Origin: Escherichia coli
GTDB taxonomy: Bacteria; Pseudomonadota; Gammaproteobacteria; Enterobacterales; Enterobacteriaceae
Direction: 5' to 3' (one strand)
DNA length: 64,000 nt
Assembly (NCBI RefSeq): GCF_013315695.1
Contig: NZ_CP054353.1
In this document: positions 23,208 through 63,829 of the stretch, in pieces
Numbering within the stretch: position 1 is the stretch's first letter
Layout: every line of letters starts with the position of its first letter
Position numbers and translations under genes: made by a program
Notes under the pieces: model-generated
Told to the model about the DNA's origin: nothing
Databases searched by the model: none
Seen by the model: only the letters and a program-made list of their open reading frames with translations

Positions 23208-23479
23208 TACCGTTGTCTCTCGTCCAGGTTTACTCCTGATAGAAAGTCATCGGCACTTGACGGTAATTACTTATGACCAAAAACCTCTTTGCGTCACATT
23301 TTTACAACAATTATGGCAGAGAAGAATAATGCCATTGGAATGAAGAGAGTAACGAACGGCTAAACCGAATGACGAAAAATTCTGGAAAACAGCACGCAAT
23401 TTCGTCAAGTGATTATTTTCGTCCCTAAGGAAACCTCATAGGATGCCTGCGGGTGCCTGAGACTTTCTGTTTTCAGGCT

Positions 23480-23538
23480 AACCGGGAATCAGAAAGACGA
23501 AGGCCCCGACCGATATTTCTATCAACCGAGGCCAACGA

Positions 23539-23545
<7 letters not shown>
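23480..23545 (-). ncRNA. sokB: Putative SokB antisense RNA (position approximate)
   Basis: Inferred from hok/sok organisation: antisense to the mokB leader; not resolved directly in sequence. Confidence 0.3.
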
Positions 23546-23746
<201 letters not shown>

Positions 23747-23817: not shown

Positions 23818-23991
23818 TCAGTTAGTACATGTTTTTTTCGATGCACTAATAGAACCATCATTACAGACAAATTTGCCGCCTGCCGTACAGTGTGAGATTC
23901 CCCCTTTCGAACCAGAACAGGGTTTGCGCCCGGCATCGGCATAAAAGGAAACAAGCGTTCCCATAACCAAGATAAGTGCCAGTTTTTTCAT
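23818..23991 (-). CDS. ydcA: Small secreted cysteine-rich protein YdcA (57 aa)
   Basis: Hand-translated MKKLALILVMGTLVSFYADAGRKPCSGSKGGISHCTAGGKFVCNDGSISASKKTCTN. Confidence 0.7.
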   Translation of the reverse strand: MKKLALILVMGTLVSFYADAGRKPCSGSKGGISHCTAGGKFVCNDGSISASKKTCTN

Positions 23992-24161
23992 ATAACCTCC
24001 ATGGTTTATCGAATCTTATGTTCGATTTGAACGTTATACGCTGGTTTATTTTGATACCGTTGATGAGATCAAAGATCGGGTGAATTGATTAAAGATAAGC
24101 CAGATGGACGTATAGACAAGGATTATGGTTTTATTTGTCATACAAATAAATATAATAGGCG

Positions 24162-24225
24162 CTTCCGATGTAGGCCCGTATTCTTCGCCTGTACCACGGG
24201 TCGGTTTTAGTACAGGCGTTTTCTT
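24162..24225 (+). ncRNA. rydC: RydC small RNA (pseudoknot sRNA)
   Basis: CTTCCGATGTAGGCCCGTATTCTTCGCCTGTACCACGGGTCGGTTTTAGTACAGGCGTTTTCTT between ydcA and cybB, matching my recollection of RydC. Confidence 0.6.
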
Positions 24226-24235
24226 TAAATATCCT

Positions 24236-24766
24236 TCAGGAACGTTTACGCGGCATCATGCGTAGAAGTGTGTTGTCCTTCCAGAAATAGTGGTGTGCCA
24301 GTGCAGCCGCAGCGTGCAACCCGATGACAAAATATCCCAGATTCGCCAGCGTTTCATGCCACGACTTTAAGCTATCAACCCGTTCGAAATTGGCCTCTGA
24401 AGCGTAAGGCATCGTCATACCAAACGCAAACCACGGGTTGCCCCGGTTATACATCATCACCAAACCAATCACCGGCAGCGCAATAAACAGGAGATAAATC
24501 ACCAAATGGCCCAAATGCGCCAGTCCCGTCATCATCGGTTTTGGCTTAGGTATAATCGGCGGGGTTGGGTATTTCAGCCTTAACAAAAGACGAACCACCA
24601 TCAGTACGAGAATTGAGATGCCACAGGAAACATGAATCATGTTGATGAGGGGCCGATCGCTACGTGGGAAGAAACCACGAAACTCCATTGCGCAATACGC
24701 TGCGATAACCAGCAAAAAGACCAGCCAGTGAATGCTGATTTGTAACCTTGAGTATTTATTTTCCAT
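24236..24766 (-). CDS. cybB: Cytochrome b561 (176 aa)
   Basis: Start set at MENKYSRLQISIHWLVF; membrane protein. Confidence 0.9.
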   Translation of the reverse strand: MENKYSRLQISIHWLVFLLVIAAYCAMEFRGFFPRSDRPLINMIHVSCGISILVLMVVRLLLRLKYPTPPIIPKPKPMMTGLAHLGHLVIYLLFIALPVIGLVMMYNRGNPWFAFGMTMPYASEANFERVDSLKSWHETLANLGYFVIGLHAAAALAHHYFWKDNTLLRMMPRKRS

Positions 24767-24954: not shown

Positions 24955-25956
24955 ATGAGTAAAGTTGGTATTAACGGTTTTGGTCGTATCGGTCGACTGG
25001 TGTTGCGTCGATTACTTGAAGTCAAAAGCAACATAGACATTGTCGCTATTAATGATCTCACTTCCCCAAAAATTCTCGCCTACCTGCTGAAACATGATTC
25101 AAACTACGGACCGTTCCCCTGGAGCGTTGATTTTACGGAAGATTCACTTATCGTTGATGGGAAAAGTATCGCGGTTTACGCCGAAAAAGAGGCTAAAAAT
25201 ATTCCGTGGAAAGCGAAAGGCGCAGAAATCATTGTCGAATGTACTGGCTTTTATACCTCCGCCGAGAAATCGCAGGCGCATCTCGATGCTGGCGCGAAGA
25301 AGGTGTTGATTTCCGCCCCTGCCGGTGAAATGAAAACTATCGTTTATAACGTCAATGACGACACTCTGGATGGCAACGATACCATTGTTTCCGTGGCGTC
25401 ATGCACCACTAACTGTCTTGCACCGATGGCCAAAGCCTTGCACGACAGTTTCGGAATAGAAGTCGGCACGATGACGACCATTCATGCCTATACCGGCACT
25501 CAGTCACTGGTGGATGGTCCGCGAGGTAAAGATCTACGCGCTTCACGTGCAGCGGCAGAAAATATCATTCCCCACACTACAGGTGCGGCAAAAGCCATTG
25601 GTCTGGTGATCCCGGAACTGAGCGGCAAACTGAAAGGTCATGCGCAACGCGTGCCGGTGAAAACAGGTTCGGTCACTGAGCTGGTGTCCATTCTCGGAAA
25701 AAAAGTGACTGCCGAAGAGGTGAATAACGCACTTAAACAAGCAACCACCAATAACGAGTCATTTGGTTATACCGATGAAGAAATAGTCTCTTCCGATATC
25801 ATTGGCAGCCATTTCGGTTCGGTGTTTGATGCCACGCAAACGGAAATTACCGCCGTGGGCGATTTACAACTGGTGAAAACGGTCGCCTGGTACGATAACG
25901 AATATGGCTTCGTCACACAGCTCATTCGCACCCTCGAAAAATTCGCTAAACTCTGA
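24955..25956 (+). CDS. gapC: Glyceraldehyde-3-phosphate dehydrogenase C, intact 333-aa frame
   Basis: NAD-binding [10 protein letters not shown] at N terminus; full-length uninterrupted ORF. Confidence 0.9.
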
Positions 25957-48448: not shown

Positions 48449-48476
48449 ATGCTCTGGATAAGGATCATCCAATTCT

Positions 48477-48571
48477 AAAAAAAAGCCCGGACGACGGTTC
48501 GGGCTTGTCTCATTATTTGTTGGATAAACAGTAACAAGGGTCCAACAGAAAATAATCTTTGTGACAATAAA
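48477..48571 (-). ncRNA. micC: MicC small RNA (OmpC-repressing), with its intrinsic terminator
   Basis: Minus-strand GTTATATGCCTTTATTGTCACA... 5' seed, ending in hairpin GCCCGAACCGTCGTCCGGGC plus T-run; between ydbK and ompN as in K-12. Confidence 0.6.
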
Positions 48572-48838
48572 GGCATATAACCCGCGAAGAATAACGCATC
48601 ACTATTTAAATGTATAATTTTTATTTTGTATATGTCGCCAACAATATATTCACCAGACTTATTATCATTTCAGAAGAATTATTTGATTAAGGTTTTACTT
48701 AAGGCGTAACAAATAATATTTATCGTCTAACTGAACTTCTCCTTTAGGATGCTTTCACTCCCCGAAATGGGGATAAAAGGCAAGGTGATGCTGCCAACTT
48801 ACTGATTTAGTGTATGATGGTGTTTTTGAGGTGCTCCA

Positions 48839-63453: not shown

Positions 63454-63648
63454 ATGAGATATGACAATGTTAAACCATGTCCATTTTGTGGTTGTCCATC
63501 AGTAACGGTGAAAGTCATTTCAGGATATTACCGAGCGAAGTGTAACGGATGCGAATCCCGAACCGGTTATGGTGGAAGTGAAAAAGAAGCACTCGAAAGA
63601 TGGAATAAACGAACCACTGGAAATAATAACGGAGGTGTTCATGTATAA
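63454..63648 (+). CDS. ralR: Restriction alleviation protein RalR/Lar (64 aa)
   Basis: Start set at MRYDNVKPCPFCGCPSVTVKV; Cys-rich motif. Confidence 0.7.
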   Translation: MRYDNVKPCPFCGCPSVTVKVISGYYRAKCNGCESRTGYGGSEKEALERWNKRTTGNNNGGVHV

Positions 63649-63829
63649 AATTACCGCCACTATTGAAAAGGAAGGTGGCACTCCTACTAACTGGACAAGA
63701 TATTCAAAATCTAAACTAACGAAATCAGAATGCGAAAAAATGCTCTCAGGTAAAAAAGAAGCAGGCGTTTCCAGAGAGCAGAAAGTAAAACTGATAAATT
63801 TTAATTGCGAGAAACTTCAGTCCTCGTGA
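63641..63829 (+). CDS. ydaC: Rac prophage protein YdaC (62 aa)
   Basis: Start set at MYKITATIEKEGGTPTNW, overlapping ralR stop. Confidence 0.6.
   Translation: MYKITATIEKEGGTPTNWTRYSKSKLTKSECEKMLSGKKEAGVSREQKVKLINFNCEKLQSS

Follow-up and report, generated by a model that had tools for sequence, protein, structure and literature searches.

A common natural allele of the small RNA gene rydC at its canonical locus between ydcA and cybB in an Escherichia coli chromosome

Background

The short spacer between ydcA and cybB in an Escherichia coli chromosome raises the question of whether it carries a gene at all and, if it does, which one. The spacer lies within a stretch of 64,000 nucleotides (64 kb) that was analysed as a whole and is called the window here. 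In the initial annotation, positions 24162-24225 of the window had been proposed to be the gene of RydC, a pseudoknotted small RNA (sRNA), and it had been expected that annotation based on open reading frames (ORFs) would miss it. Knowledge of RydC goes back about twenty years and comprises an Rfam family, a crystal structure with Hfq, a defined target in cfa and a repressor, YieP.

Identification and annotation of the locus

The identity of the stretch was analysed by searching all 4227 Rfam families against the whole 64-kb window on both strands, which gave four matches above the gathering thresholds. The RydC family (RF00505) matched positions 24162-24225 of the plus strand over model positions 1-64 of 64, with a score of 90.5 bits and an E-value of 1.6e-16, against a curated gathering score of 48 bits for this family. 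An Rfam search of this interval was the check that had been named beforehand, and its result was strongly positive. The matched bases, CTTCCGATGTAGGCCCGTATTCTTCGCCTGTACCACGGGTCGGTTTTAGTACAGGCGTTTTCTT, are identical to those of K-12 RydC at 63 of 64 positions, the sole difference being A13G. The match, which falls on exactly the interval that had been proposed, together with this identity bears out the assignment of the stretch to RydC. Positions 24162-24226 of the plus strand are thus, with near certainty, the chromosomal rydC gene of E. coli, which encodes a trans-acting sRNA of 64-65 nt whose dependence on Hfq is taken from the literature. Nothing was found that speaks against the identification. 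The transcript and its two neighbours are placed as follows:

23818-23991, minus strand: ydcA, an ORF of 57 aa, identified from the annotations of K-12 and strain MS 21-1
24162-24226, plus strand: rydC transcript, 64 nt according to the Rfam match and, with one extra 3' U, 65 nt in the annotation of K-12
24236-24766, minus strand: cybB, an ORF given with its stop codon included, identified from the same two annotations

In the annotation of K-12 MG1655 the ncRNA gene rydC (b4597, 65 nt) stands in the order cybB–rydC–ydcA, convergent with cybB and divergent from ydcA. The arrangement in the window is identical, which confirms the proposed position of the sRNA between these two genes. The RNA ends in TTTTCTT(T), and its 3' end is separated from the stop codon of cybB by 9-10 bases, in accordance with the distance of about 10 bp that had been given for the T-run. 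Over a 24-kb piece round rydC, strains MSB1_4I and MS 21-1 show 100% identity to the window, and identity falls to about 99% in the next group of strains, to which SMS-3-5 belongs.

The annotation of this locus in public records was also inspected. The RefSeq/PGAP annotation of MS 21-1 contains trg, hokB, two hypothetical proteins, cybB, gap and aldA and has no feature at rydC. The record NZ_CP146670.1, from a strain that is 100% identical here, carries a RefSeq/PGAP annotation without sokB and without rydC, the absence of the latter being as anticipated for an annotation based on ORFs. In two species-wide E. coli searches (5410 genomes with a match), no annotated feature lay under the 64-nt match among the records listed. 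To a scan that relies on ORFs or on these annotations, the cybB-ydcA spacer would therefore look empty. The practical value of the present result lies in this annotation gap of the RefSeq/PGAP E. coli records.

Several other features of the window were recorded. The Rfam family sok (RF01794) matched positions 23451-23602 of the plus strand with 109.4 bits, on the strand of the hokB/mokB mRNA (hokB ORF at 23597-23746, plus strand). The annotated antisense RNA sokB, when its coordinates are transferred from K-12, would lie at about 23493-23549 on the minus strand, so that the model apparently represents the leader region of hok and not the strand of the Sok RNA. The ORF of gapC at 24955-25956 (plus strand) encodes an intact glyceraldehyde-3-phosphate dehydrogenase of 333 aa; the gene is named gap in MS 21-1 and is a pseudogene in K-12 MG1655. 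The sRNA MicC was matched at 48469-48584 (minus strand, 104.1 bits), and RalA, the antitoxin RNA of the RalR/RalA system, at 63647-63825 (minus strand, 225.1 bits).

Promoter and putative YieP operator

Two elements were located directly upstream of the transcript:

24130-24150, unstranded: perfect palindrome of 21 bp (9+3+9), TTTATTTGT-CAT-ACAAATAAA, a candidate YieP operator, which abuts the -10 box and overlaps the promoter spacer and the -35 region
24151-24156, plus strand: perfect sigma-70 -10 box TATAAT, separated from the start by 5 bases and kept out to S. arizonae

No recognisable -35 box was found upstream of rydC, and the consensus scan returned no promoter because the -35 box is absent. 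The published description of the rydC promoter, a -10 box without a -35 box, matches this arrangement (PMC11340327).

The palindrome, like the -10 box, is conserved out to Salmonella arizonae. Its core at 24133-24147 reads ATTTGTCATACAAAT, and the reverse complement of the core, ATTTGTATGACAAAT, is an exact match to atTTGTaTGAcaAAT, the motif obtained for YieP by ChIP-exo, with rydC/ydcA among the targets bound by YieP (PMC7642389). The 12-base pattern ATTTGTNNNACAAAT occurred once in the 64-kb window and gave 0 matches in 100 shuffles. A repression of rydC by YieP of about 20-fold has been reported for E. coli; Northern blots showed RydC only when yieP was deleted, and under standard conditions the RNA was undetectable in wild-type K-12 (PMC11340327). 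A RegulonDB search described in the same work yielded no site for a transcription factor in the rydC promoter, and a search of the text of this 2024 paper by terms gave no mapped YieP operator at rydC (PMC11340327). The match to the motif and the position over the promoter suggest that the palindrome at 24130-24150 is probably the YieP operator, an operator of the GntR/FadR type. It offers a concrete candidate for a repressor whose site at rydC is not mapped in that paper. YieP, a repressor of the GntR family, would normally keep rydC off, probably by way of this 21-bp palindrome.

The palindrome was compared between the window and related genomes. Position 24137 is G in the window, E. albertii, E. 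whittamii and S. arizonae, and A in K-12 and one other E. coli lineage. The A breaks the left half-site of the palindrome in K-12, and the G looks ancestral since it is present in E. albertii, E. whittamii and S. arizonae. Beyond what is already known of rydC, the analysis adds only minor points, namely the gap in RefSeq annotation and this exact YieP-motif palindrome, which is perfect here and degenerate in K-12.

Pseudoknot structure and conservation

The elements of the RNA are listed below in the order of their coordinates:

24162-24171, plus strand: single-stranded 5' seed CUUCCGAUGU, nt 1-10, unpaired and invariant in 9 of 9 aligned Escherichia/Salmonella sequences
24173-24179, plus strand: 5' arm of stem S1, nt 12-18 (GGCCCGU), forming seven standard pairs with nt 35-41
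24186-24194, plus strand: 5' arm of stem S2, nt 25-33 (CGCCUGUAC), within the S1 loop and forming nine Watson-Crick pairs with nt 49-57
24196-24202, plus strand: 3' arm of S1, nt 35-41 (ACGGGUC), pairing with nt 12-18 and carrying G37 and G39
24210-24218, plus strand: 3' arm of S2, nt 49-57 (GUACAGGCG), which doubles as the terminator stem
24219-24226, plus strand: U-rich 3' tail UUUUCUUU, the tail of the intrinsic terminator and the site for the proximal face of Hfq (function from PMC4337610)

The RNA is predicted to fold as an H-type pseudoknot formed by S1 (nt 12-18/35-41) and S2 (nt 25-33/49-57), with about the first 10 nt left free. The outer S1 position 11A/42G is a non-standard pair both here and in K-12, and UU steps are present in both loops (L1, AUUCUU; L2, GUUUUA). 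S2 and the U-tail together form the intrinsic terminator. The proximal face of Hfq would bind the U-tail, and its rim would contact the UU steps in L1 and L2. The structural claim is carried by the Hfq-RydC crystal structure and the accompanying mutational work, and mutation of G37 or G39 destabilises RydC in vivo (PMC4337610). Nucleotides 7-12 (24168-24173, plus strand) read AUG-UAG, 6 nt from the 5' end; as this leaves no space for a ribosome-binding site, the occurrence is most likely coincidental to the seed sequence.

Related copies were collected by a pattern scan (CTTCCGATGT…TTCGCCTG…CAGGCG) over one genome per species, which returned only 8 loci, comprising 7 true copies and 1 chance match. 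Besides E. albertii, E. whittamii and Salmonella arizonae, the true copies belong to three other Escherichia lineages and to a second lineage named E. coli. The chance match, in Stappia sp. BW2 (L005 1363-1423), was the sole non-enterobacterial locus and is without the S1 helix, the U-tail and the promoter. No locus from Klebsiella, Citrobacter or Enterobacter was among those returned, and the main representatives of E. coli and S. enterica were also absent. As many expected species were missed in this way, the covariation sample is small and no double-sided change in S1 was observable.

In the sample of 7 distinct, closely related Escherichia/Salmonella sequences, standard pairs were present in 98.3% of cells (S1 96.4%, S2 100%), compared with 24-43% in a control in which the 3' partners were slid by 1-3 columns. 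Three compensatory pairs were found in S2 (U-A to C-G, A-U to G-C and C-G to U-A), all of them from the single lineage of S. arizonae. The S1 pair 13/40 was A-U in 4 and G-U in 3 of the 7 sequences, the G-U form being the allele of the window. Both helices are present and kept in related species, and the earlier description of the sRNA as a pseudoknot is upheld.

The stability of the fold was evaluated by single-sequence folding, in which the nested minimum free energy was -16.1 kcal/mol with a z-score of -0.98; these values are uninformative because pseudoknots lie outside what the folding algorithm can model. Interleaved helices of at least 7 and 9 bp occurred in 0.5% of 64-mer shuffles and in 0.7% of genomic 64-nt windows. 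The fold is only modestly unusual by this measure and was therefore not used as primary evidence. It is consistent with RydC, and the identification does not rest on it. The generic terminator scan reported a short hairpin at 24187-24201 in place of the S2 terminator, which it missed because the loop of the latter exceeds the 8-nt limit of the scan; the hairpin was rejected as spurious.

The pattern of conservation also bears on the possibility that the locus encodes a small protein and not a non-coding RNA. Two mechanical ORFs, and only these, overlap the stretch, one of 41 aa at 24085-24210 (plus strand, TTG start) and one of 46 aa at 24125-24265 (plus strand, ATG start). The starts of both, however, lie upstream of the transcription start, in the promoter/operator, and the 46-aa ORF continues into the antisense of cybB. 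The sole start codon within the transcript itself is an AUG followed at once by UAG, and the conservation tracks base pairing, with compensatory and G-U changes, and not codons. The likelihood that a protein is the product of this stretch is negligible, and the non-coding RNA RydC is retained.

The position of the stretch allows one more explanation to be considered. It lies 9-10 bases past the stop codon of cybB on the opposite strand and has a strong hairpin inside, as would be seen if there were no independent RNA gene and the stretch were just the 3' end of the convergent gene cybB, its terminator or an intergenic remnant with structure. On the strand of cybB, however, the hairpins are followed by AAGAAUAC or ACAUCGGAAG and by no U-run, and the terminator scan gave no minus-strand site at 24150-24235. 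The perfect -10 box and the repressor motif stand at the right distance for a plus-strand start at 24162, and the 5' ten bases are invariant across genera, though no terminator would need them. Neither the -10 box nor the operator nor the invariance of the seed would be explained by a cybB terminator. A plus-strand 5' triphosphate end at the equivalent of 24162 has already been reported for K-12. There are, moreover, published Northern blots that show RydC and a crystal structure of its complex with Hfq (PMC11340327, PMC4337610). That the stretch belongs to cybB or is a remnant is hardly conceivable, and an independent rydC gene is the preferred reading.

Pairing with the cfa leader

The complementarity between the seed and the leader of cfa was analysed. 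Nucleotides 3-12 of RydC pair with CUACGUCGGA at positions -108 to -99 of cfa (K-12), and the duplex of 10-11 bp with cfa -109 to -99, in which G13 can pair with U-109, has an energy of -16.8 kcal/mol. When the 20-nt seed was compared with shuffles, 13 of 500 paired as well. The cfa site is intact in MS 21-1; the leader of that strain has only three differences from K-12, and none of them falls in the site. A 65-mer spanning the site was found in 5424 of 5426 E. coli genomes. The observed complementarity is in accordance with the published role of the seed in cfa pairing (PMC6755755, PMC4337610).

The stability of RydC needs Hfq, and the pseudoknot exposes its 5' end (PMC6755755, PMC11340327). 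The sigma-70 transcript of cfa has a leader of 212 nt, and pairing of RydC with this leader masks an RNase E site and counteracts Rho-dependent termination; the outcome is more cyclopropane fatty acid synthase and better acid survival (PMC6755755, PMC11340327). For csgD, Hfq helps to open S1 and RydC then pairs at the start of translation, which represses the gene (PMC3985669), and the weaker repressive targets given in the literature are csgD, yejABEF, pheA and trpE. The transcript and the activation of cfa are known for K-12 and Salmonella (PMC4337610, PMC6755755, PMC11340327), and it is by analogy with these that Hfq dependence, cfa regulation and repression by YieP are ascribed to the gene of the window. 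Pairing of its seed with the cfa leader would mask the RNase E site and counter Rho termination, so that cyclopropane fatty acid synthase and acid resistance would increase.

Distribution and the A13G allele

The distribution of the gene was examined in complete E. coli genomes. The RydC 64-mer is single-copy in 5410 of the 5426 genomes; an allele at least 99% identical to that of the window is present in 1241 of the 5410, and the remainder show 95-99% identity. The substitution A13G changes a pair of stem S1, in which the partner is U40, from A-U in K-12 to G-U in the window. The energy of S1 is -9.9 kcal/mol in the window and -10.5 kcal/mol in K-12. G13 is also found in E. albertii and E. 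whittamii. In the upstream 100 bases, four positions differ from K-12.

A substitution relative to K-12 inside S1, with the slightly weaker stem that goes with it, could mean that rydC has decayed in this lineage or has changed in function. G13 nevertheless still pairs with U40, and its pairing with U-109 of cfa is still possible. The occurrence of an allele at least 99% identical to it in 1241 complete genomes and of G13 in two further species also argues against decay, as do an Rfam score far above the threshold and the intact seed, loops, tail, promoter and operator. A decayed or altered copy is therefore very improbable, and we infer that the RydC allele of the window behaves like that of K-12. 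The gene is an already known one at its canonical locus, carrying a common natural allele.

The perfect palindrome of the putative YieP operator and G13 together could give tighter repression of rydC and a pseudoknot that opens slightly more easily than that of K-12, a suggestion that we regard as rather doubtful. If it were true, the K-12 picture of RydC regulation and of its activity on csgD and cfa would not be fully representative of the species.

Comparison with known systems

The gene of the window was compared with RydC of K-12 (b4597, RF00505), with which it shares the locus, length, seed, pseudoknot helices, loops, terminator and -10 box. The differences are A13 in K-12 against G13 in the window, A against G at 24137 and three further substitutions in the ydcA-rydC intergenic region. 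RydC of Salmonella, which was crystallised with E. coli Hfq, agrees with that of the window in the topology of the pseudoknot, in the UU steps of each loop and in the U-rich tail (PMC4337610). The 5' neighbour of rydC in Salmonella, however, is a methyltransferase gene and not ydcA (PMC11340327). In S. arizonae the 5' 17 nt of RydC are identical to those of the window, whereas the RNA is 2 nt longer and has the three compensatory changes of S2 pairs and other loop sequences.

Other Hfq-dependent sRNAs, namely ArrS, CpxQ and the sponge OmrB, act on the leader of the long cfa isoform or on RydC (PMC6755755, PMC11340327). Among these, ArrS has a cfa site that overlaps that of RydC and follows the same logic of RNase E masking (PMC6755755, PMC11340327). 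ArrS, CpxQ and OmrB are nevertheless unrelated to RydC in sequence, fold and locus, and RydC is the sole pseudoknotted member of this set.
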